64,000 nt of DNA from an uncultured Actinomycetes bacterium (GCA_963720515.1 OY970397.1:223363-287362); one strand, 5' to 3'. Positions 27,581 to 37,251 are shown, counted from the first letter of the stretch. Notes: generated by a model from the sequence alone, not told the origin. A program made the numbers and translations.

Positions 27581-30500
27581 ATGCCCGTGCCCGACGCGTC
27601 CTTCGTTCACCTGCACGTCCACTCCGAGTTCTCGATCCTCGACGGGGCGTGCCGGATCCCGGCGCTCGCCGCGCGGGCCGCCGAGCTCGACATGCCGGCC
27701 GTCGGGCTCACCGACCACGGCTCGCTCGCGGGGGCGGTCGAGCTCTACAAACAGGCCGGAACGCAAGGAATCAAGCCGATTCTGGGCTGCGAGGTCTACG
27801 TCGCCGACGATCGCCGCGCGCTCAAGAAGGGTTATGCGCACCTGACGCTCCTGGCCGAGTCCAACGAGGGCTACGCGAACCTGATCCGCCTCGTCTCGTC
27901 GGGCTACCTCGAGGGCTACTACTACAAGCCGCGCGTCGACTGGGAGCTCCTCGAGCGCCACTCGAAGGGGCTCGTCGCGCTCTCCGGCTGCCTCTCCGGC
28001 CGGGTGTCGAAGGCGCTCGAGCAGGGGAGCCGCGGCCAGGCCGAGGCCGAGCTCGCGCGCCTGCGCGACGTCTTCGGCGCCGACTCGACGTACGTCGAGC
28101 TCCAGAACGCCGGCCTCCCGGTGCAGGAGCGGATCGTCGCCGAGCTCACGGAGATGGCGGCCCAGTTCAACCTCCCGACGGTCGCGACCGGGGACGTCCA
28201 CTACCTGAACCACGCGGACGCGCGCGCACACGAGGCGCTCCTCTGCATCCAGTCGGGCGACTCGCTCTCGAACCCGAACCGGTGGCGCTTCGACACCGAC
28301 CAGTTCTTCTTCAAGAGCCCCGACGAGATGGCGCTCGACTTCCCGGGCCACGAGGACGCGATGCGGCGCACGCTCGAGATCGCCGAGCGCTGCACGGTCA
28401 CGATGGAGCTCGGCCGGATCCTGCTGCCGACCTTCCCGGTGCCCGACGGCCGCGACGCGTTCGACTACCTGGTCGAGCTCTGCGAGAAGGGCCTCGAGCG
28501 CCGCTACGAGCGCGCGACCCCGGAGCTCACCGACCGGCTCAAGTTCGAGCTCAAGACGATCAAGGAGATGGGGTTCGCGGACTACTTCCTGATCGTCTGG
28601 GACTTCATCCAGTTCGCGAAGCGCGAGGGGATCGGCGTCGGCCCGGGCCGCGGCTCGGCGGCCGGCTCGCTGGTCGCCTACTGCCTCGAGGTCACGGACA
28701 TCGACCCGATCCGCTACGACCTGCTCTTCGAGCGGTTCCTGAACCCGGGCCGCAAGTCGATGCCGGACATCGACATCGACTTCTCCGTCCACGGCCGCGA
28801 CCGCGTCATCAACTACGTGGCCGACAAGTACGGGCGCGACCGGGTGGCCCAGATCATCACGTTCGGGACGATGATGGCGCGGGCCGCGGTGCGCGACGCC
28901 GGGCGCGTGCTCGACGTGCCGTACGGGACGGTCGACCGGATCGCGAAGCTCATCCCCGAAGGCCCGAAGGTCTACCTCGAGGAGTCGATGAAGCGCGGCT
29001 CCGACCTGCGCGAGGCCTACGACTCGGACGAGCAAGTGCGCCAGATCGTGGACCTCGCGCGGCCGCTCGAGGGGCTGGTCAGGCAGGACTCGATCCACGC
29101 GGCGGGCGTCGTGATCGGCGACCGGCCGCTCACCGAGTACGTGCCGCTCCAGCAGAAGGGGCCAGAGCAGGAGGTCGTGACGCAGTTCTCGATGGGCGAC
29201 GTCGAGGCGCTCGGTCTGCTCAAGATGGACTTCCTCGGCCTGCGCAACCTGGACGTGATCGACGAGGCGGTCGCGCTCATCGGCAACGGCCTCGACATGC
29301 GGACGGTGCCGCTCGACGACCCGAAGACCTACGCGCTCCTCCAGCGCGGCGAGGCGAACGGCGTCTTCCAGTTCGAGTCCTCCGGGATGCGCGAGGCGCT
29401 CCGGCAGGTGAAGCCCACGGAGTTCGAGGATCTCATCGCGCTCGTCGCGCTCTACCGGCCGGGGCCGATGGCCTACATCCCGGTCTACGCGCGGCGAAAG
29501 CACGGCGGCGAGGCGGTCGCGTTCGCCGATCCGCGGCTCGAGCCGATCACCGGGCCGACCTACGGGATCTGCATCTACCAGGAGCAGTACATGGAGATCG
29601 CCAAGCAACTCGCGGGGTTCACGCCCGCCGAGGCGGACGACCTGCGCAAGGCGATCGGCAAGAAGATCCACGCGCTCATGGCGTCCCTCAAGGACAAGCT
29701 CCTCGAGGGCTGCGCCGCGAACGGGGTCACGCCGCAGGTCGCGCAGCAGCTCTGGAAGGACATGGAGCAGGCGCAGGACTACTCGTTCAACAAGTCGCAC
29801 GCCGCCTGCTACGCGCTCATCGCCTACCGCACCGCGTACCTCAAGGCGAACTTCCCGGCGGAGTACATGGCGGCGCTCATCTCGTCGGTCATGAACACGA
29901 AGGACAAGGTGCCGTACTACGTCGCGGCCTGCGACGAGCTCGGGATCGAGGTGCTGCCGCCCGACGTGAACTCCTCTGCCGCGGACTTCGCGGTCGTCGA
30001 GGGGAAGATCCGGTTCGGGCTGAACGCGGTGAAGAACGTGGGCGGGTCGGCCGCGCAGTCGATCGTCGCGGCGCGCGAGGACGGCGGGCCGTTCGAGTCC
30101 GTCTGGGACTTCGTCGAGCGGGTGGACGCCCAGCTCGTGAACAAGCGCGCGCTCGAGGCCTTGGCGAAGTGCGGCGCGCTGGACTCCACGGGCGCGACGC
30201 GGCGCGGGCTGCTCGACGACGAGATGCTCGAGCGGGTCGTCGGCTGGGGCGTGAAGCACCAGGCCGACCGGCTCTCCGGGCAGGGCTCGATCTTCGACCT
30301 GGGCCTCGAGGACGCGGGGGAGGCCGGCCCGGCGCGGCACCACCCGGTGCTGCCGACGGCGGAGTACGAGAAGCGGACGCTGCTCGCGTTGGAGAAGGAG
30401 AGCCTTGGGCTCTACGTGTCCGAGCATCCCTTGGATGCCGTTCGGGGCGCGCTGCGGCGGAAGACGGACTGCACGCTGGCCGAGCTCGAGCGTCGTCGCG

Positions 30501-31001
30501 ACGGCGACGTCGTCACGGTCGGCGGGCTCGTCGGCGCATCGAAGGCGATCACGACGAAGAAGGGCGACCCGATGGTCTTCCTGCGGCTCGACGACCTGTC
30601 CGGGTCGGTCGAGGTGGTCGTATTCAACTCGGTGCTGGCCGGCTCGCGCGAGCTCCTCGACGTCGATCGCATGCTCGTCCTCAAGGGGCGCGTGGACCAC
30701 AAGCAGGAGGGCGAGACGAAGGTGATCGCGATGGAGGTTGCGCCGTTCGACGCCGCGCCGGATGCGGAGTCGGACCGCGAGGTGCGGCTCCGGGTCGATG
30801 CGCGCGCGGCGCTCGGCGGGGCTCATCCGCGAGTTGGCCGACGTGGCGAAGCGCTACCCGGGCGAGGCGTCAGTGGTGGTCGCGCTCGAGACGTCGCAGG
30901 GCCCACAGACATACGCCTTCGGCCCCGGCTTCCGCGTGAAGCCCGCGCCGGACTTCTACGCCGAGGTGAAGGCGTTGCTCGGCGAAGCCGCCGTCGCGTA
31001 G
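27581..31001 (+). CDS. dnaE: DNA polymerase III alpha subunit, frame broken once near 30810
   Basis: PHP domain (FVHLHVHSEFSILDG), the polymerase core, and the OB fold. The last ~65 codons (SAGLIRELADVAKRYPGEASVVVALE...) lie in the frame of ORF 30738..31001. Confidence 0.95.
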
Positions 31002-31019
31002 CCGGCGCTCCCGACCGGC

Positions 31020-31676
31020 TCAGGAGAGCGCGTGCTCGAGGGCGGTCCGATTGTGCGGACCACCGTGCGTGGCGAGCACATCCTCGACCGGCCGCTCGAG
31101 CAAGGGGCGCAACGCCTCCTTGACCTGCTCGGGCGTCACGCCGTCAGGTAGCCAATCCGGCGGGATCTCGAGGCCGTGGCCGAAGTCGACGAGTGTGTCG
31201 CCGGCGATGACCGCACGGCGGCTCTCGACCCAAAGCACGAGGTCGTTCGGCTCCTTTCCCGGGAACGCCTCGACTCCGACCGACAGCCGATCGCCGGCCG
31301 AGAACAGATGCCCCTCGACCGCGTCCCCGGCTAGCAGCCAGGCCACGTCGGGGCTGCCTTCGTCGGGCGGAGGCACGAATACCGGCGCGCTGAGCCGCTC
31401 CGCCAAGCTCTGGGTGTCGCGCTCGTGCCACGGGCACGTCAGCACGATCGCCGCCTGGCGGTCGGCCGCAAGCTCGACGATCTCTCTCGGCACCGCCAGC
31501 GGATCGAACAGCAGCACCTGGTCGCCGTTGTCGATCGCGTAGGACGAAACCACTCCCGCCTCACTCGGCGTCTCAGCGGTCGCCGCAAGGCGCTGGCGAA
31601 GCGACTCGGTCTCAGGCCCCGACCAGTCCGGGTGCGGTGCCTCCCAGTGCCACAAGCCCGTTCGCAACTCGCGCAC
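31020..31676 (-). CDS. MBL-fold metallo-hydrolase
   Basis: ...AAIVLTCPWHERD...VIAGDTLV...THGGP, beta-lactamase-fold-like histidine/aspartate motifs. Confidence 0.6.
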   Translation of the reverse strand: MRELRTGLWHWEAPHPDWSGPETESLRQRLAATAETPSEAGVVSSYAIDNGDQVLLFDPLAVPREIVELAADRQAAIVLTCPWHERDTQSLAERLSAPVFVPPPDEGSPDVAWLLAGDAVEGHLFSAGDRLSVGVEAFPGKEPNDLVLWVESRRAVIAGDTLVDFGHGLEIPPDWLPDGVTPEQVKEALRPLLERPVEDVLATHGGPHNRTALEHALS

Positions 31677-31751
31677 GGCGGCATCCTAAATCACATGGAC
31701 GCAGTCGCCGACGCTCGCCCAGGGGCAGAGCTCGCGGGCGCATCCGGCGTG

Positions 31752-31779
31752 TAACTACTGGGCCGCGATAACCCCTGAC
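31752..31779 (+). repeat. cassette-boundary repeat R1 (5' 28 nt only)
   Basis: TAACTACTGGGCCGCGATAACCCCTGAC; 27 of 28 identical to R2. Confidence 0.75.
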
Positions 31780-31897
31780 GAGCCTAGAAAGCGCATGGAC
31801 GGCAGGATGGGGAGCCGTGGCCCAAAGGTACTGCGCGGCCCTCCTCGCTCCGGTCGTCGAGGCAAAGCGTCCTCCCGCCTGGCGCTAACCTGCTGGC

Positions 31898-32578
31898 ATG
31901 GCCGACTCGCCTCAGAACACATGGAAAGTCACGCACCTGGACGAGTTGCCGCGGGTCGGAAACGGCAGCCTCTGGCGGCCGGTCCGGCGACAGCTCGGTG
32001 TGACGGGCTTCGGCATCAACGCATATACGGCCGAGGAGATCGGGGCTGAGCTCATCGAGCCCCACGACGAGACGAGCCCCGGCTCGGGGCGCCACGAAGA
32101 GGTCTACCTCGTCGTCGAGGGCACGGCACGATTCCGGGTCGCGGACTCCGACCTCGAGGCGTCCAGCGGCACTTTCGTGTTCGTACCGCCCGGCGTACAC
32201 CGCGAGGCGACGGCCGGTGCAGCCCCGACCACGGTTGTCGTCGTCGGGGGCCGCCCCGGCACCGCCCTACCCGTGTCACCGTTCGAGTACTGGTACGCGG
32301 CAGAACCGGCCTACCAGGCAGGCGACTTCGAGGAGGCGGTCGCGATTGCCCGCGAAGGCTTGGTCGATTATCCCGACCACCCACACCTGCACTACCAGCT
32401 GGCCTGCTACGAAGCTCGCGCGGGGAATGCCGACGCCGCCCTGGCGCACCTGGAGGTCGCGTGCCGTGACGAGCGTGTGTCCGGCTGGGCGGCGGACGAC
32501 GAGGACTTTTCGAGCCTTCGCGGCGACGAGCGTTTCACCCGGCTACTCCAGTCCGGCGCGTCGAGCCCATCAGCGTAG
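31898..32578 (+). CDS. cupin domain protein with TPR-like C-terminal extension
   Basis: HDETSPGSGRHEEVYLVVEGTARF...FVFVPPGVHRE, then a helical repeat region. TAACCT lies 6 nt upstream of the ATG. Confidence 0.65.
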   Translation: MADSPQNTWKVTHLDELPRVGNGSLWRPVRRQLGVTGFGINAYTAEEIGAELIEPHDETSPGSGRHEEVYLVVEGTARFRVADSDLEASSGTFVFVPPGVHREATAGAAPTTVVVVGGRPGTALPVSPFEYWYAAEPAYQAGDFEEAVAIAREGLVDYPDHPHLHYQLACYEARAGNADAALAHLEVACRDERVSGWAADDEDFSSLRGDERFTRLLQSGASSPSA

Positions 32579-32596
32579 GTCGAGACCGCCGATCGG

Positions 32597-32660
32597 TAAC
32601 TACTGGGCCGCGATTACCCCTGACTGCGCTCAGGCGACAGTACGCTCGCGCAAGCGAGCG
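32597..32660 (+). repeat. cassette-boundary repeat R2 (full length)
   Basis: TAACTACTGGGCCGCGATTACCCCTGACTGCGCTCAGGCGACAGTACGCTCGCGCAAGCGAGCG; starts about 18 nt after the stop of the upstream gene. Confidence 0.8.
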
Positions 32661-32730
32661 TTCGCAGATGACGCCAGAGCTGGGCGGGGTCGACTTGGCA
32701 TTGACCGGCAGGTCGTAGCGTTGACCGGAC

Positions 32731-33750
32731 GTGCCGGCGGGTGTTAGATCGGTGCCGCATGCCGGCCGTGTGGCGGCAACCGTGAGCACCGACCCCGTCG
32801 AGCGACGCGAGCGGCTTGCGCGAGCGACCGCGGCCCGCGCGCAGCGGGATCGCGACGTCGGGTTCACGGTCATTTGCGTCGGCCTGATGATCTTCCTGAT
32901 CCCGTGCCTCGTCGTGTTCGTCCTGTACTGGACGGGAGTGGCTACAAGCGACCTGACCGGCCTGGTCCTACTGCCCGCCTGGTTTGCGTCGACGTGGGTG
33001 ATCAAGCGCGGGCGACGCATGCGGGTCGCTGCCGGCGAGCGCGTGCTCGCCGAGGATGAGCGAGCGCCGATCGTCTTCCTGCGGCCGTTCGACGCCGACG
33101 ACTCGGAGTCCGACAGATCATGGTCGTCACGGGTGCGGGCGTCGCCGTGGGAGCGCTACATCACGCACGAGCAGCGGCTGGCCCGCACGCTCCGCAAGGT
33201 CGGCCCGTTCGTGGCCGTCGGCGACCCGACCGAGGAGCTGCCCCAGCTCGGTGCTGCGCGCGTGTACGCGGCCGACGAGGACTGGCAGGCGACGGTCGAC
33301 GAGTGGACCGCCCGCGCGGGCGTGGTGCTCCTGCAGACAGGTGAGAGCGAGGGCCTGGCCTGGGAGGTGCAGCACGTGGTCGCCCTCGGCACTCCCGAGC
33401 GCGTAATCCTGTCGCTGCCGCCGGCTGGCAAGCGCAAGGGGCGCTCGCGGCAGGAGCGTTACGACGCGTTCCGGCGTCGCTTCGGCGACGTGTTCCCGCG
33501 CGGCTTGCCCGAGTCGATCGGGCACTGCCTGTTCGCCTACTTCAACTCGGACTGGACGCCGCGGCTGCTCGGAAAACGCGGCGTGCCGCTCCCCGCCGGC
33601 GACGCGCCCCGCGACGTCGCGCTACGGCGGCTCGCGCGCGAGTTCAAGATCATGTGGGGGCCGCGCTGGGCACGCTATACGGGTTACATCGCAGCATCCA
33701 TCGCAGCCGTCGACGTCGTCTACTACTTCGGTGGCGATCTCGTGTCGTGA
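32731..33750 (+). CDS. membrane protein: N-terminal two TM helices plus a cytoplasmic Rossmann-like (TIR/SLOG-like?) domain
   Basis: VGFTVICVGLMIFLIPCLVVFVLYW and LVLLPAWFASTWVI, then PIVFLRPFDADD...GPFVAVGDP...GAARVY...AGVVLLQTGESEGLAWEVQHVV...RVILSLP (alternating strand/helix pattern). Start codon uncertain. Confidence 0.6.
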   Translation: MPAGVRSVPHAGRVAATVSTDPVERRERLARATAARAQRDRDVGFTVICVGLMIFLIPCLVVFVLYWTGVATSDLTGLVLLPAWFASTWVIKRGRRMRVAAGERVLAEDERAPIVFLRPFDADDSESDRSWSSRVRASPWERYITHEQRLARTLRKVGPFVAVGDPTEELPQLGAARVYAADEDWQATVDEWTARAGVVLLQTGESEGLAWEVQHVVALGTPERVILSLPPAGKRKGRSRQERYDAFRRRFGDVFPRGLPESIGHCLFAYFNSDWTPRLLGKRGVPLPAGDAPRDVALRRLAREFKIMWGPRWARYTGYIAASIAAVDVVYYFGGDLVS

Positions 33751-33854
33751 TGCCGCGCGGGAATCCACGCGGCCAGCAATTGGGCGCGGTTCGTCTCGCG
33801 CCCGTGCCTTGTCGCTCGGCGAGGGGACGAAGGGCTAGGCGAGGGTCCTTCACG

Positions 33855-33908
33855 CGACTACAGAGTTGCGTTTACCCCCGACTGCGCTCCAGCGACAGTA
33901 CGCTCGCG
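33855..33908 (+). repeat. cassette-boundary repeat R3
   Basis: CGACTACAGAGTTGCGTTTACCCCCGACTGCGCTCCAGCGACAGTACGCTCGCG. Confidence 0.8.
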
Positions 33909-33919
33909 GATTGAGGAGT

Positions 33920-34606
33920 TCATCTTGTGGCGGTGTGCGCGAGCGCCGAGGGTGTCTGGCAGCCGACGATCGCGGGGGCCTCGTGGACGAGCTCGTCGTT
34001 CTCGAGGGCCTCCACCATGAACAGGGCGAAGTCGACGCGGCGCGTGAGGTTGCTCTCGAGGATGGGATCGCCCACGTGCCGGCTCCAGACGGGCAGGCCC
34101 TGACTCTCGCCCTCCTCGAGGTCGCTCCCGCGCACGACGGTCCACCGAGTGTCGCTGGCAAACACCCGCCGACAGGCCTCCACTTGGTCGTCGAGGTCGG
34201 CGAAGCGAGCCAGACGCGCGAGCGGCCCGAACACTTTCACGATGGCCTTGAGCTTCCACGAATACACGTCCTGGCCGTCTCGCGTGATGTGCCACCCGCA
34301 TGAGAACACGAGTCGCGCCTCAGGACGTGCGTAGTCGAGCACGGCCTGAGCTGTCCCCGACGCGTATCCGTGGACGCCCCGCGGAACCAGCACGACGAGC
34401 ACCCCGTCACACCCCGCGACAGCTCTCTTGATGACCTCTCGGTCGTCCGTCGCGCCCGGCAGCACGTGGATGCGCCCCTTGAACGCATCCAGCTTCTGCA
34501 CGCTTTGCTCCCGGCATACGCCAACCACCTCGTAGCCCCGATCCAGTGCGTGCTGCACCATGTACTGCCCGAGCTTCCCTGAAGCCCCGACGATGCACAC
34601 CCTCAT
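33920..34606 (-). CDS. NAD(P)-binding atypical SDR / NmrA-like protein
   Basis: MRVCIVGASGKLGQYMVQHALDRGYEVVGVCR (GxxGxxG). I prefer the ATG at 34606 to the listed GTG at 34621. Confidence 0.8.
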   Translation of the reverse strand: MRVCIVGASGKLGQYMVQHALDRGYEVVGVCREQSVQKLDAFKGRIHVLPGATDDREVIKRAVAGCDGVLVVLVPRGVHGYASGTAQAVLDYARPEARLVFSCGWHITRDGQDVYSWKLKAIVKVFGPLARLARFADLDDQVEACRRVFASDTRWTVVRGSDLEEGESQGLPVWSRHVGDPILESNLTRRVDFALFMVEALENDELVHEAPAIVGCQTPSALAHTATR

Positions 34607-34660
34607 CGTGTGCTCGCTCACCCATCCAGGCTATCGCTCGCCGCCGCCGCATCTCGCCAG

Positions 34661-34712
34661 CGACTACAGAGCTGTCTTTATCCCCGACTGCCCTCGAGCG
34701 ACAGCACGCACG
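34661..34712 (+). repeat. cassette-boundary repeat R4
   Basis: CGACTACAGAGCTGTCTTTATCCCCGACTGCCCTCGAGCGACAGCACGCACG. Confidence 0.75.
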
Positions 34713-34724
34713 TGCAGTCCTCGG

Positions 34725-34922
34725 TCATCTCGCCTCAGACCTGCCGCGACCGCGTGTTACGAGGAGCGCCAGCGCGATGACTGCCGCCGCCGCCAGGAGA
34801 AGGCCGTCATCCAGAGCCCAGCTGGCGCTGAAGAGCGAGTCGACCACTACGCCGGCGAAGATGATGATGAGCGCGACCACTAACCCGACACGAACCTTGT
34901 GCCAACGAACGTGGCGGGGCAT
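34725..34922 (-). CDS. small two-TM membrane protein (65 aa)
   Basis: MPRHVRWHKVRVGLVVALIIIFAGVVVDSLFSASWALDDGLLLAAAAVIALALLV. TATATT lies 6 nt upstream of ATG 34922. The longer listed ORF has a Pro/Arg-rich, unconvincing N-terminus. Confidence 0.5.
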   Translation of the reverse strand: MPRHVRWHKVRVGLVVALIIIFAGVVVDSLFSASWALDDGLLLAAAAVIALALLVTRGRGRSEAR

Positions 34923-35165
34923 GAGCCAAATATAGATCGACGGCCCATCCGCCGCTTGCTCGGCCGTCCGCAGAGGCTCGAATCGGTAACTGCGCGGTGG
35001 ATGCGGGACTGGATGCGCTCTCCGGCTGGGACGGGCCCAGCGCTTCAACACAGGCGGTCGTTTGTGAGGCGCGATCGGACGTGACGCGAGCGGACCAAGA
35101 ACTGCTTCGTTCGGCCGTGGCCCGGTGCCAGGCATCCGTCCAGGTTGAAGTGGACGTGGCCGGCG

Positions 35166-35324
35166 CTAGGAGCTGCGCTCGCGGAGCCGGTCGAGGATGA
35201 ACTTCGCGTACCAGGCGGGCCAGTCGTCGTCCCGCCGGCCCAGTTCCTTCTCGTAGGCGCCGTGCGCCTGCTCGGCCTCGCGGAGGAGCGCGGCGAGCTC
35301 GTCGGCGGTGAGCGCGTCGTCCAT
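35166..35324 (-). CDS. small conserved hypothetical protein (52 aa)
   Basis: MDDALTADELAALLREAEQAHGAYEKELGRRDDDWPAWYAKFILDRL; trimmed from ORF 35166..35450. Confidence 0.5.
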   Translation of the reverse strand: MDDALTADELAALLREAEQAHGAYEKELGRRDDDWPAWYAKFILDRLRERSS

Positions 35325-35334
35325 GCGGCGGAGC

Positions 35335-35781
35335 CTACTCCGGCGCGAGGCCCTTGGCCCGGAGCTCATCCAGGGCGGACTCCGACTTCTCGAGTCCGTC
35401 GAGCCCCATGCCGTGCAGGACGTGGTCGGCCTTCGTGAACTGGATGTCACCGTAGCCGACGATCTCGATCCGGTTGCCCCACGGGTCGCGCGTCTCGAGC
35501 CCGCGTCCCGGCAGGATCTCGGCGCCAGCCTCTTCGAGGGCGCGGCGCGCGAGCTCCTTGTCGTCCACGACGAATCCGACGTGGCGGTTGCGGTCCGGCT
35601 CCTGCGTCTTCCCCTCCGAGAGCGCGACGAACTGGTCGCCGAGGTCGAGGAACGCCATACCTCCGACCCGGCCGCGGAGCGTGAACTCGAAGATCCGCCC
35701 GTACCAGGCGAGCGCCTCCTCGATGTCGCCGACCTCGAACGCGACGTGGTTCAGGCCGACGAGTCGCGGCCGGCCGGCCAC
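35335..35781 (-). CDS. glyoxalase/VOC family protein
   Basis: LNHVAFEVGDIEEALAWYGRIF...HVGFVVDD...RDPWGNRIEIV. Confidence 0.85.
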   Translation of the reverse strand: MAGRPRLVGLNHVAFEVGDIEEALAWYGRIFEFTLRGRVGGMAFLDLGDQFVALSEGKTQEPDRNRHVGFVVDDKELARRALEEAGAEILPGRGLETRDPWGNRIEIVGYGDIQFTKADHVLHGMGLDGLEKSESALDELRAKGLAPE

Positions 35782-35782
35782 G

Positions 35783-36613
35783 TCAGCTGCGGCGCCAGCC
35801 GCGCCGCTCGCCGTTGCCGCCGCCGGCCTGGTCGCGCTTCGGCTCCTCCGGCTCGGCTTCCGCCTCGGGCTCTGGCTCGGCTTCCGCCTCGGGCTCGGGC
35901 TCCGGTTCAGGTTCGGGCTCCGGTTCAGGTTCGGGCTCCGGTTCAGGTTCGGGCTCCGGTTCAGGTTCGGGCTCCGGCTCAGGTTCGGGCTCCGGCTCAG
36001 GTTCGGGCTCCGGCTCAGGTTCGGGCTCCGGCTCCGGCTCAGGTTCCGGCTCCGGTTCGGGCGGTGGGGACGGCGGGCCCGCCATGCGTGCGGCCGGCGG
36101 CACCTCCACGATCTGCTCGGCCGGGGGCGGCTCGACCTCGGGCCACTGGGCGGGAGTCCGCACCGCGAACTCGTTCATCCGCGAGACCACGTTCTCGAGT
36201 CCGCGGCGCGCCCATTCGGCCCGCTCGACCATGAGCCGGACGCCTTCGTCGATCCACTCCTCGCGCCGGTGCGCGGCCTCCTCGACGATCGCGGCCTGCC
36301 GGCGGGCCTCGGCCAGGATCTGATCCGCCTCGGTGCGCGCGGCGTCGAGGATCAGACGGGCGTCGGCCTCGGCCTCGCGGCTCCGGTCCGAGCGGAGACC
36401 CGACACCTCGGACTCGGCCTGGCGGCGCATGTCCTCGACCTCGGCGCGGGCCATCTCGAGGATGTGCTCGGCGGCCTGCTCGGCCGCGGTGAAGACGGCG
36501 GAGACTCGCGGGCCGATGCCTGCGGCCGAGTCGAGTTCGCGCTCATCGGCGCGCTCGCCGCCCGCCCCCGACGAGGGTGGGCCGCCGCCGGCTTGGTCGT
36601 CCGGGGGCCGCAC
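35783..36613 (-). CDS. coiled-coil protein with a long C-terminal (Pro-Glu)n repeat
   Basis: [26 protein letters not shown]...[21 protein letters not shown] (ATPase b/E- or DivIVA-like coiled coil), then about 45 PE dipeptides. TACGCT lies 7 nt upstream of GTG 36613. Confidence 0.7.
35846..36062. repeat. tandem 6/18-bp coding repeat (encodes the PE dipeptide array)
   Basis: ggctccggttcaggttcg repeated several times, then the ggctccggctcaggttcg variant, read directly from the sequence. Confidence 0.9.
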
Positions 36614-36687
36614 GTGAGTGAGCGTAGTCCTTTCGCAGGACGACGACCGCGGAACCCTGGGGCGCGGAACGGTGTAGAACCGGCAGC

Positions 36688-37251
36688 GTGGAGGGCCGGC
36701 CACGAGAAGACGACCGCCTCGTCGAGCGCGCGATGCGCGGCGACGCCGAGGCCTACGAGGAGCTGGTTCAGCTGCATCAGGGCATCGCCTTTCGCACCGC
36801 CGTGCTCGTCTGCGGGAACGCCGCGGACGCCGAGGAGGCCGCGCAGGACGGGTTCGTCAAGGCCTACCGGGCGCTCGGGCGCTTCCGCCGCGGGGCGCCG
36901 TTTCGCCCCTGGCTCCTCGCGATCGTCGCCAACGAGGCGCGCAACCGCCGACGCTCGGCCGGGCGGCGCGGCGCGCTCGACATCAGGCTCGCGGCGGAGC
37001 TCTCGGGGGACGCGGCCCCGTCCCCCGAGGTGTCCGCCGTGGCGGACGAGCAGCGCCGGGAACTCCTGGCCGCGCTCGGAACGCTGCGGGAGGAGGACCG
37101 CCAGGTGCTCGCCTGCCGGTTCTTCCTCGACCTGTCGGAGGACGAGACCGCGGCCGCGCTCGGCGTGCGCCGCGGCACCGTGAAGTCGCGCCAGTCGCGC
37201 GCGCTCGTGCGCCTGCGCGCCGTCCTGGAGGAGCCCGATGCACGCGCCTGA
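36688..37251 (+). CDS. ECF-type RNA polymerase sigma factor
   Basis: [39 protein letters not shown] (region 2) and [25 protein letters not shown] (region 4). Confidence 0.9.

Follow-up and report, generated by a model that had tools for sequence, protein, structure and literature searches.

A polar, composite intergenic repeat punctuates an island of single genes beside dnaE in an uncultured soil actinobacterium

The stretch of DNA analysed here, 64,000 nucleotides (nt) from an uncultured Actinomycetes bacterium (GCA_963720515.1 OY970397.1:223363-287362; hereafter the window), is part of a complete 2.6-Mb chromosome and carries, next to dnaE, an island of single genes punctuated by direct copies of a short repeat. 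Apart from one identical record, the next-best relatives of the host DnaE come from metagenome-assembled genomes (MAGs) of Gaiellaceae at ~80% identity; the host is a Gaiellaceae-like soil actinobacterium. On the left the island is bordered by dnaE (DNA polymerase III alpha, Pfam; 27581-31123, + strand) and on the right by ancestral DNA, namely a small open reading frame (ORF) at 35166-35327 and a VOC/glyoxalase gene at 35335-35781, both on the - strand, both conserved in relatives and neither of them a cassette. Nucleotide homology (blastn) to three syntenic relatives, L053, L054 and L055, breaks off at 30996-31002 and returns at 35172-35183. Because homology ends and resumes in this way, the unusual DNA is delimited as an inserted island of 4.2 kb (31003-35171) between the convergent dnaE and the small conserved gene, containing five genes and four repeat copies. 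The three relatives keep the order dnaE … small ORF – VOC – 184/193-amino-acid (aa) ORF – sigma factor – lgt – scpAB, and at the position of the island two of them have a single F420H2-quinone-reductase gene and the third a BON gene and a 131-aa gene. Compared for the island's genes at this locus, all three lack the island, and none of them contains a copy of the repeat.

The island genes are small and stand singly, two on the + strand and three on the - strand. The first, within the inserted segment, encodes a metallo-beta-lactamase (MBL)-fold protein of 218 aa (31020-31676, -; Pfam Lactamase_B, 1.4e-6), the second a 226-aa cupin and TPR protein (31898-32578, +; Pfam and NCBIfam), the fourth a 233-aa NAD(P)-binding NmrA-like protein (33920-34621, -; NAD_binding_10/NmrA in Pfam), which sits tightly between the repeat copies called R3 and R4 below, and the fifth a putative membrane protein of 65 aa (34725-34922, -) with marginal matches only. 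The third is a 339-aa ORF of uncertain start codon (32731-33750, +), earlier described as '2TM plus Rossmann-like', for which no match was found in Pfam, NCBIfam or PADLOC. An original prediction, made from the sequence of the window, had placed single, unrelated genes between the repeats, and this was borne out, with Pfam confirming the cupin plus TPR and NAD_binding_10/NmrA families; of the interval that it had proposed to align across strains, from the MBL hydrolase to the VOC gene, the MBL gene is indeed inside the island whereas the VOC gene is outside it and ancestral. The proportion of G+C at third codon positions (GC3) is 0.83-0.87 in the island genes versus 0.93-0.98 in the surrounding housekeeping genes, and overall GC falls to 0.65-0.67 at 34100-35000. 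PADLOC gave no credible match to anti-phage defence in the island, and no identical sequences of the window's cupin-TPR and sigma proteins are on record.

All four repeat copies lie on the + strand, whatever the strand of the genes beside them. A repeat search of the window returned three full direct copies, R2 (32596-32648), R3 (33854-33906) and R4 (34660-34712), with mutual identities of 81-85%, and a left-half copy of 29 nt, R1 (31751-31779), with 97% identity to R2 (28/29). The core pattern CCCYGACTGCSCTCNNGCGACAG matches the window three times with at most three mismatches, against 0.05 matches expected, and at least three matches were obtained in 0/100 shuffles. The copies are confined to 3.2 kb, with none in the other 60 kb, and follow one another at 845, 1258 and 806 nt, each interval holding one gene. 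The four same-orientation copies of the original prediction are thus real, its coordinates were correct to within 1-2 nt, and the direction it described as constant irrespective of gene strand is so.

The extents of the copies were set with an extended hidden Markov model (HMM) built with relatives' copies, in which the core may be accompanied by a second element, the E module. R1 (31701-31779, model positions 11-76) consists of a degenerate E module and the left half of the core (core part 31751-31779); its similarity to the family stops after CCCCTGAC, and the MBL gene starts ~25 nt from its E remnant. R2 (32590-32662) has a full core (32596-32650) and, at its right end after the core, an 8-bp GC hairpin, ACGCTCGC-GCAA-GCGAGCGT, at 32642-32661. 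R3 (33825-33911) combines an E remnant (..CTAGGCGAGGGTCC), a full core and a degenerate right extension, 9 nt beyond which lies the stop codon of the minus-strand NmrA-like gene (33920-33922). R4 (34649-34739) has a full core and a right extension (GCAGTCCTCGGTCA) that includes the stop codon (34725-34727) of the minus-strand 65-aa ORF. The extended model detected no further copy in 30900-35400, and a 10-nt echo of a repeat edge at 34982-34991, once thought to mark where the unusual region ends, was rejected as an end-site of the array, as 33% of shuffles give as many recurrences of edge 10-mers.

The repeat is composite, polar and intergenic, and it recurs in other genomes in the same layout. 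Its core measures ~57 nt, AACTACAGAGTTGCGWTTAYCCCYGAC|TGCGCTCNNGCGACAGYACGCTCG, and the E module, ~35-45 nt and reading CTCGGGTGACATTCCCGAACACTGGCCCAGGCGAGGG on the + strand, precedes the core in most other genomes; the window contains no intact E, only the degenerate remnants in R1 and R3. Pattern scans of a collection with one genome per species yielded 17 loci and scans of metagenomes 31, 48 in total, and true homologues were sorted from chance matches by alignment and by an HMM of the aligned copies with a cut-off of at least 30 bits. This score was reached by 24 of the 48 loci, whose copies align over most of the core: 11 of the 17 from genomes (the other six being chance matches) and 13 of the 31 from metagenomes, the remaining 18 matching in the 23-nt pattern region only or not at all. 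Mean column identity among the aligned copies is 80%, the core is 85-95% conserved between genomes, and the hosts found here, at ~25 loci, are only Gaiellaceae/Thermoleophilia/Actinomycetota-labelled MAGs and soil metagenomes. A literature search by sequence strings and by topic returned no description of the repeat.

Sought beyond the window, the repeat was found in same-orientation arrays between other single small genes. The array in L011 has five HMM matches at an E-value of at most 0.05, and up to seven when weaker ones are included, on the same strand over ~5 kb; L015 and L005 have three copies each (core copies in L015), and L020, L044 and L030 two each. Neighbouring copies are mostly 0.4-1.4 kb apart, the widest gaps being ~2 kb, and each interval typically holds a gene for a single small enzyme (GNAT, MBL-fold, RibD_C, VOC, cupin) or an unknown. 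In every locus the copies are intergenic; they are clustered at gene boundaries and not scattered regardless of them. The E module also occurs alone, and more often, for example five times in L008 and four times in L039.

Orientation is uniform within each locus, as core and E matches lie on one strand throughout (9/9, 7/7, 6/6, 5/5, 5/5, 4/4 and so on). The strand of an array bears no consistent relation to the coding-strand majority or to GC skew, a weak test on short contigs, and replication-strand polarity was on this basis rejected as the cause of the uniformity. A 750-nt module, comprising a gene for 234 aa with an E at its start, is found twice on the contig CAVXTG010000013.1 (L004 1030-1776 and L015 5865-6617), inverted and with 92.8% identity, and the E sits at the same place relative to the gene in both. 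Because this module is inverted on one contig, the orientation of arrays is a local property and not a genome-wide one.

Several copies look as though they had been broken and rejoined, and hybrids as well as half copies are present. Over 730 nt, through the right half of the core, L042 and L046 have 98.8% identity, while their left halves are 77% identical and their left flanks differ; the last difference falls directly before GACTGC. Conversely, L002 and L004 have the left flank and the core in common and diverge in the right flank. The left-half-only copies (R1, L005+36, L011-5016 and L015+4335) all cease to match the family within the same 5 nt, at CCCY GAC T. In L031 (669-743) the core contains a 21-nt tandem duplication, GCGTCTTATCCCCGACTGCG|GCGTCTTTATCCCCGACTGCG, which spans the exchange point proposed below.

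The genes of the island likewise occur elsewhere, in other contexts and again next to copies of the repeat, as with the cupin-TPR gene in L032 (described below). The repeat copies of the window are 86-89% identical to copies in other genomes versus 71-82% among themselves, and the 120 homologues listed for the NmrA-like gene, from soil metagenomes, share ~89-97% of their amino acids with it, against ~80% for DnaE. As copies are closer across genomes and NmrA relatives closer than DnaE, it follows that the sites and genes do not have the chromosome's history. Homology of the NmrA-like gene to L063, L073 and L074 is limited to the ORF, and in L074 the homologue, at 93% nucleotide identity, is followed by an E module without core. 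A GNAT gene, tightly bounded by E with or without the core, lies beside dnaE, a Clp-type ATPase gene (clpB-like), AdnAB-like helicase genes, an aminotransferase gene and others. In L052 (DnaE identity 69%) the 3' end of dnaE is likewise adjoined by several small genes in a row, with E remnants, and the relative orientation is the same as here.

The same GNAT gene gave some further observations. This RimJ/RimL-type protein (L008 4610-5122, -; P0001-P0120) has 2518 relatives at an E-value of at most 1e-20, in clusters of up to 558 members in soil metagenomes, whose representatives are 85-98% identical to the L008 query. Six contigs with the variant P0061 show the same context and no new arrays, and all end 150-500 nt upstream of the gene, as if a variable or repeated stretch had interrupted the assembly. 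At the junctions of the GNAT module with core genes (dnaE in L052, 10526-10590; the aminotransferase in L056, 1057-1090), the E on its 3' side is cut at ..CCAG(C/T)GT| with unrelated DNA beyond, and this cut is a further recurrent break point, distinct from that of the core.

What process might have produced these features? The explanation I favour, tentatively and short of calling it probable, is that the repeats served as att-like junctions where modules of one gene each, from a shared soil pool, were inserted and exchanged by an enzyme acting in trans. Circles or segments of DNA with one small accessory gene, drawn from a pool common to soil relatives, would be joined or swapped at the repeats and would enter the gap between the convergent dnaE and the small conserved gene one or a few at a time, so that the present copies may be att-like sites, or scars of such sites, at the joints of the modules. 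Breakage and joining would be site-specific and enzymatic, with the exchange point at or beside CCCY-GAC-T in mid-core; from such a position it would follow that left and right halves assort independently. Whole modules may move as units, and the repeats may be what makes the genes mobile. With its boundary repeats, its insertion and its hybrid and half copies, the family partly supports the cassette-like reading, in the sense of recombination scars, that the original prediction gave to this array; a fixed orientation of gene to site and an integron-type mechanism, by comparison, did not hold up.

A number of observations weigh against this explanation. Independent break points are only a handful, and they recur at several places (at the core's left margin, in its middle and where E ends); moreover, L011-2563 and L011-995, and possibly R1 as well, could be full copies that have diverged strongly, which would leave fewer independent half copies. 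There is no dyad symmetry around the proposed crossover. The closest counterpart of the cupin-TPR module, in L032 (367-1069), corresponds at 90% nucleotide identity to 31881-32583 of the window only; the homology ends a few nt past the ORF and not at a fixed point of the repeat, and the core and E that follow have the opposite orientation to the gene compared with the window. Close GNAT and NmrA homologues also occur without any nearby repeat. Copy counts cover the 64-kb window and the fetched loci. Finally, I was unable to identify a recombinase, transposase or relaxase/HUH domain by Pfam among the ~50 ORFs across the 64 kb (no Phage_integrase, no resolvase), which agrees with the original prediction that none was in view; nor did the genes called in L049-L055, in L063-L074 and in the remaining contexts, retrieved with ±10 kb, include a recombinase.

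Could the genes simply have been moved by homologous recombination? On this account no dedicated enzyme is involved: the repeats would be portable homology through which RecA-type recombination loops out a gene, re-inserts it in the manner of Campbell, or anchors DNA after uptake. The array layout and the uniform orientation would then follow automatically, the failure to find a recombinase would be expected, and repeats of 57-130 nt at 85-97% identity are within reach of the process. Furthermore, R1 and R2, which flank the cupin module, share a private left-half variant, ACTACTGGGCCGCGAT, absent from every other copy, and such a private 29-nt variant (28/29) is what a single crossover between identical segments would leave; in L011, too, the copies 2563 and 995 share, as judged by eye, a private left-half variant, GTGACTACGGAGTAGCGGTAATACC, and flank two genes. 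Homologous recombination, however, cannot account for left halves that run into unrelated DNA at a recurrent position, array-mates that are 71-82% identical are a poor substrate for it, and the conservation of the core between genomes (86-95%) suggests selection on the sequence itself. I regard this account as unlikely.

A stronger competitor to att-like joints is a selfish, non-autonomous repeat, comparable to a miniature inverted-repeat transposable element (MITE), to repetitive extragenic palindromes (REP) and bacterial interspersed mosaic elements (BIME), or to the Neisseria intergenic mosaic elements (NIME). Such a repeat would colonise intergenic DNA, especially E, in a fixed orientation and would mark accessory DNA without moving it; it would accumulate in flexible islands, where insertions are tolerated, while the genes move otherwise. 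I judge both parts of this, the colonising repeat and its accumulation in islands, to be possible, though each is doubtful. The core does resemble an insertion in E: an empty site reads ..CCAGCCGAGG.. (L049) and a filled one CCAGGCGAGG-[core]-CCAGCCGAGG, with an inner inverted repeat, GCGAGGGTCCTGTCGC / GCGACAGGACGCTCGC. A MITE would have terminal inverted repeats and a target-site duplication made at each insertion; what the E-linked copies show is this inner inverted repeat and a flanking duplication of CCAGSCGAGG, the flanks of the window copies being degenerate. Copies in L008, L032 and L015b have flanking direct repeats that match in 11/12 positions, above all cross-copy matches. Over 22 copies, by contrast, the direct repeats that flank one and the same copy resemble each other no more than those of different copies do (permutation p = 0.44), so that a target-site duplication of the core within E is suggestive in the three copies and not significant over the 22.

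The build of the repeat as a mosaic of modules with several recurrent break points, the homologous genes without repeats, the variable gene-to-repeat orientation and the lack of a nearby recombinase would all be as expected of a selfish repeat. The numbers and directions of the copies are not, since they are few and clustered (four in 3.2 kb, none in the other 60 kb and one exact match in a complete 2.6-Mb MAG chromosome, with 1-2 exact matches per MAG contig), and their orientation is uniform at each locus without exception; the many dispersed copies in either orientation that characterise MITE and REP elements were not seen in the 64-kb window and the fetched loci. Hybrid copies that share one half and its flank only also speak against it.

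The layout works like an integron array, yet the site fails the defining tests of attC. At least two same-orientation sites with single ORFs between them are present (four direct copies), but the ORFs, two on + and three on -, are not mostly co-oriented with the array, and an intI tyrosine recombinase with attI was not found next to it (Pfam, 64-kb window). The attC definition used, and tested by regular expression only, was an R'' box (RYYYAAC) and an R' box (GTTRRRY) 57-141 nt apart. Scans for RYYYAAC…GTTRRRY pairs 50-150 nt apart gave 0 in the island and 0 in the whole window on both strands, and neither box occurs in or beside R1-R4. An attC site is, moreover, recognised as a single strand folded into an imperfect hairpin with extrahelical bases, conserved in structure and variable in sequence. 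The small stem ACTGCGC/GCG-A-CAGT noted in the original prediction is present but never co-varies: for three candidate helices, the 25 aligned copies contain 0 pairs of compensatory changes, with pairing not above that of column-shuffled alignments. As sequence and not structure is conserved, attC boxes are missing, gene strands are mixed and a recombinase was not found, the array is not an integron, and the resemblance to an integron or to a cluster of attC sites lacking integrases (CALIN) that had been proposed for it is rejected as a label.

Although the sites share one orientation at intervals of 0.8-1.3 kb, enclose single ORFs and come with a cassette-type gene content, a canonical cassette array without integrase, with the repeats as attC sites, is hardly credible, being contradicted by the missing box pair, by the conservation of sequence instead of structure, by ORFs on both strands and by the lack of a detected IntI. 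Surveys, too, report no complete integron in Actinobacteria (PMC9024848, PMC4889954), in line with the original prediction, which took integrons to be essentially absent from that group.

A cis-acting expression signal on horizontally acquired genes, whether terminator or insulator, promoter or structured RNA (3' untranslated region or small RNA), must also be weighed. Copies are always intergenic, minus-strand genes end 0-13 nt from the right end of a repeat (R3, R4 and the GNAT gene), R2 ends in an 8-bp GC hairpin and E abuts start codons in several loci. The repeat keeps one orientation whatever the gene strand, however, and lies between convergent, divergent and tandem genes alike, and none of the matches to a promoter (sigma-70-type) or terminator consensus falls on a repeat; promoter and terminator were for these reasons rejected, and the leaderless promoters that the original prediction gave to the genes are putative. 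A structured RNA was rejected as well: Rfam 15 gave 0 matches in the window and, in 11 related loci, a single tRNA that has nothing to do with the repeat; for both strands, RNA and DNA folding energies mostly stay in the range of shuffles (10 of 14 with z above -1.4, the strongest at z = -3.0 and -2.1), with structures that differ between copies; and covariation is absent from the alignment. An expression signal is very unlikely. Two further candidates were also discarded, a tRNA- or tmRNA-derived att repeat, as ARAGORN finds no tRNA or tmRNA in the window and the units lack an integrase, and a coding remnant or leader peptide in E, as its variable positions have no 3-nt periodicity.

To return to the proposed att-like joints, which an enzyme would serve in trans, how does the array compare with known systems? 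With integrons and CALIN it shares direct, same-orientation sites that follow one another at 0.5-1.4 kb, mostly enclose one small accessory gene and seem to travel with genes between genomes, arrays without a nearby integrase and a GNAT/VOC/MBL/DHFR-like gene content. It differs in that the repeat has neither RYYYAAC/GTTRRRY boxes nor a covarying hairpin and is itself 85-95% conserved in sequence, in that the genes lie on either strand, in the putative mid-site exchange by which half-sites would assort, and in its host, an actinomycetote.

The pdif modules of Acinetobacter (XerC/XerD) are likewise small, bounded by short conserved sites and without an adjacent recombinase, the host enzyme being thought to act in trans, as proposed here. 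Unlike the present repeat, which is 57-130 nt long, always direct and chromosomal, pdif is a 28-bp, dif-like 11-6-11 site that alternates in orientation and is found on plasmids; no dif-like dyad was seen by eye in the core.

The BIME and REP elements of E. coli, NIME and dRS3 of Neisseria, and 'minimal mobile elements' are composite intergenic repeats of short modules. As here, different genes stand between conserved flanks in different strains; BIME/REP and NIME/dRS3, in contrast, are high-copy, dispersed and often in both orientations, whereas this repeat is low-copy, clustered and strictly polar at each locus.

Elements of the IS1111-attC group and group IIC-attC introns target attC sites in one orientation, and the core has a single position and orientation inside E, as might be expected of an element that parasitises a recombination site. 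The core is nevertheless only ~60 nt, non-coding and without an autonomous partner that could be found, the sole hint of one being a fragment of an IS110-family transposase in L008 (5407-5778; DEDD_Tnp_IS110, 1.3e-7), which adjoins the array of five E modules. Elements of the IS110/IS1111 type are known for targeting attC sites as well as repeats.

The last parallel is with integrative elements that accumulate in tandem at an att site in the 3' end of a conserved gene. Here too an island lies at the 3' end of dnaE in two genomes, direct repeats bound and subdivide it, and the C-terminus of the target gene is changed; the units, on the other hand, are single genes of 0.8-1.3 kb without an integrase of their own. 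Plasmid, phage and viral carriers of the repeat were sought and rejected, with no match in PLSDB or INPHARED and, in IMG/VR scans, 0 matches and one chance match on an AT-rich contig.

Taken with its relatives, the array clearly goes beyond an ordinary repeat. A second, integron-independent cassette system might even exist in Gaiellales and related soil Actinomycetota, capturing and shuffling single small genes of a common soil pool, with a polar, double-stranded E/core site conserved in sequence, a recombinase in trans and hot spots such as the 3' end of dnaE, a proposal that I would put forward as a conjecture and would rather doubt than expect. Apart from integrons, no well-understood machinery is known to build arrays of single, promoter-poor genes, and Actinobacteria are a dominant soil phylum. 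An array of single genes bounded by repeats would suggest that abundant, uncultured soil bacteria have another way of capturing genes; the repeat also punctuates other islands of small genes in related soil genomes, and among soil-metagenome proteins its GNAT, NmrA-like and cupin genes have hundreds to thousands of counterparts with 85-98% identity. The E/core repeat would also provide a sequence handle for mining this flexible gene pool by polymerase chain reaction (PCR) or from reads, as attC primers do for integrons. If it is a selfish repeat only, it would still be a useful marker of flexible islands in this lineage, of modest interest.

Two features at the edges of the island and the content of the rest of the window may be added. 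DnaE is 1180 aa long here versus 1100-1135 aa in the 119 relatives listed, and since homology ends at ~31000, the last ~40 codons of dnaE are read from island DNA (31003-31123). This island-derived end overlaps the 3' end of the minus-strand MBL gene, and the original stop region of dnaE seems to have been lost to the insertion, which took its place. All other Pfam matches in the window are to housekeeping or metabolic genes (for example thrS, infC, pheST, dnaE, lgt, scpA, aro genes, cmk, der, metK, priA, fmt and ribD). Beyond the right border, a minus-strand ORF of 306 aa (35783-36703) contains an 18-nt tandem repeat of at least 11 units (35810-36097). The ORFs at this position in relatives are 184-193 aa long, and its N-terminal part is 40% identical to the homologue in L049; the tandem repeat is probably a lineage-specific expansion of a Pro/Glu-rich segment.

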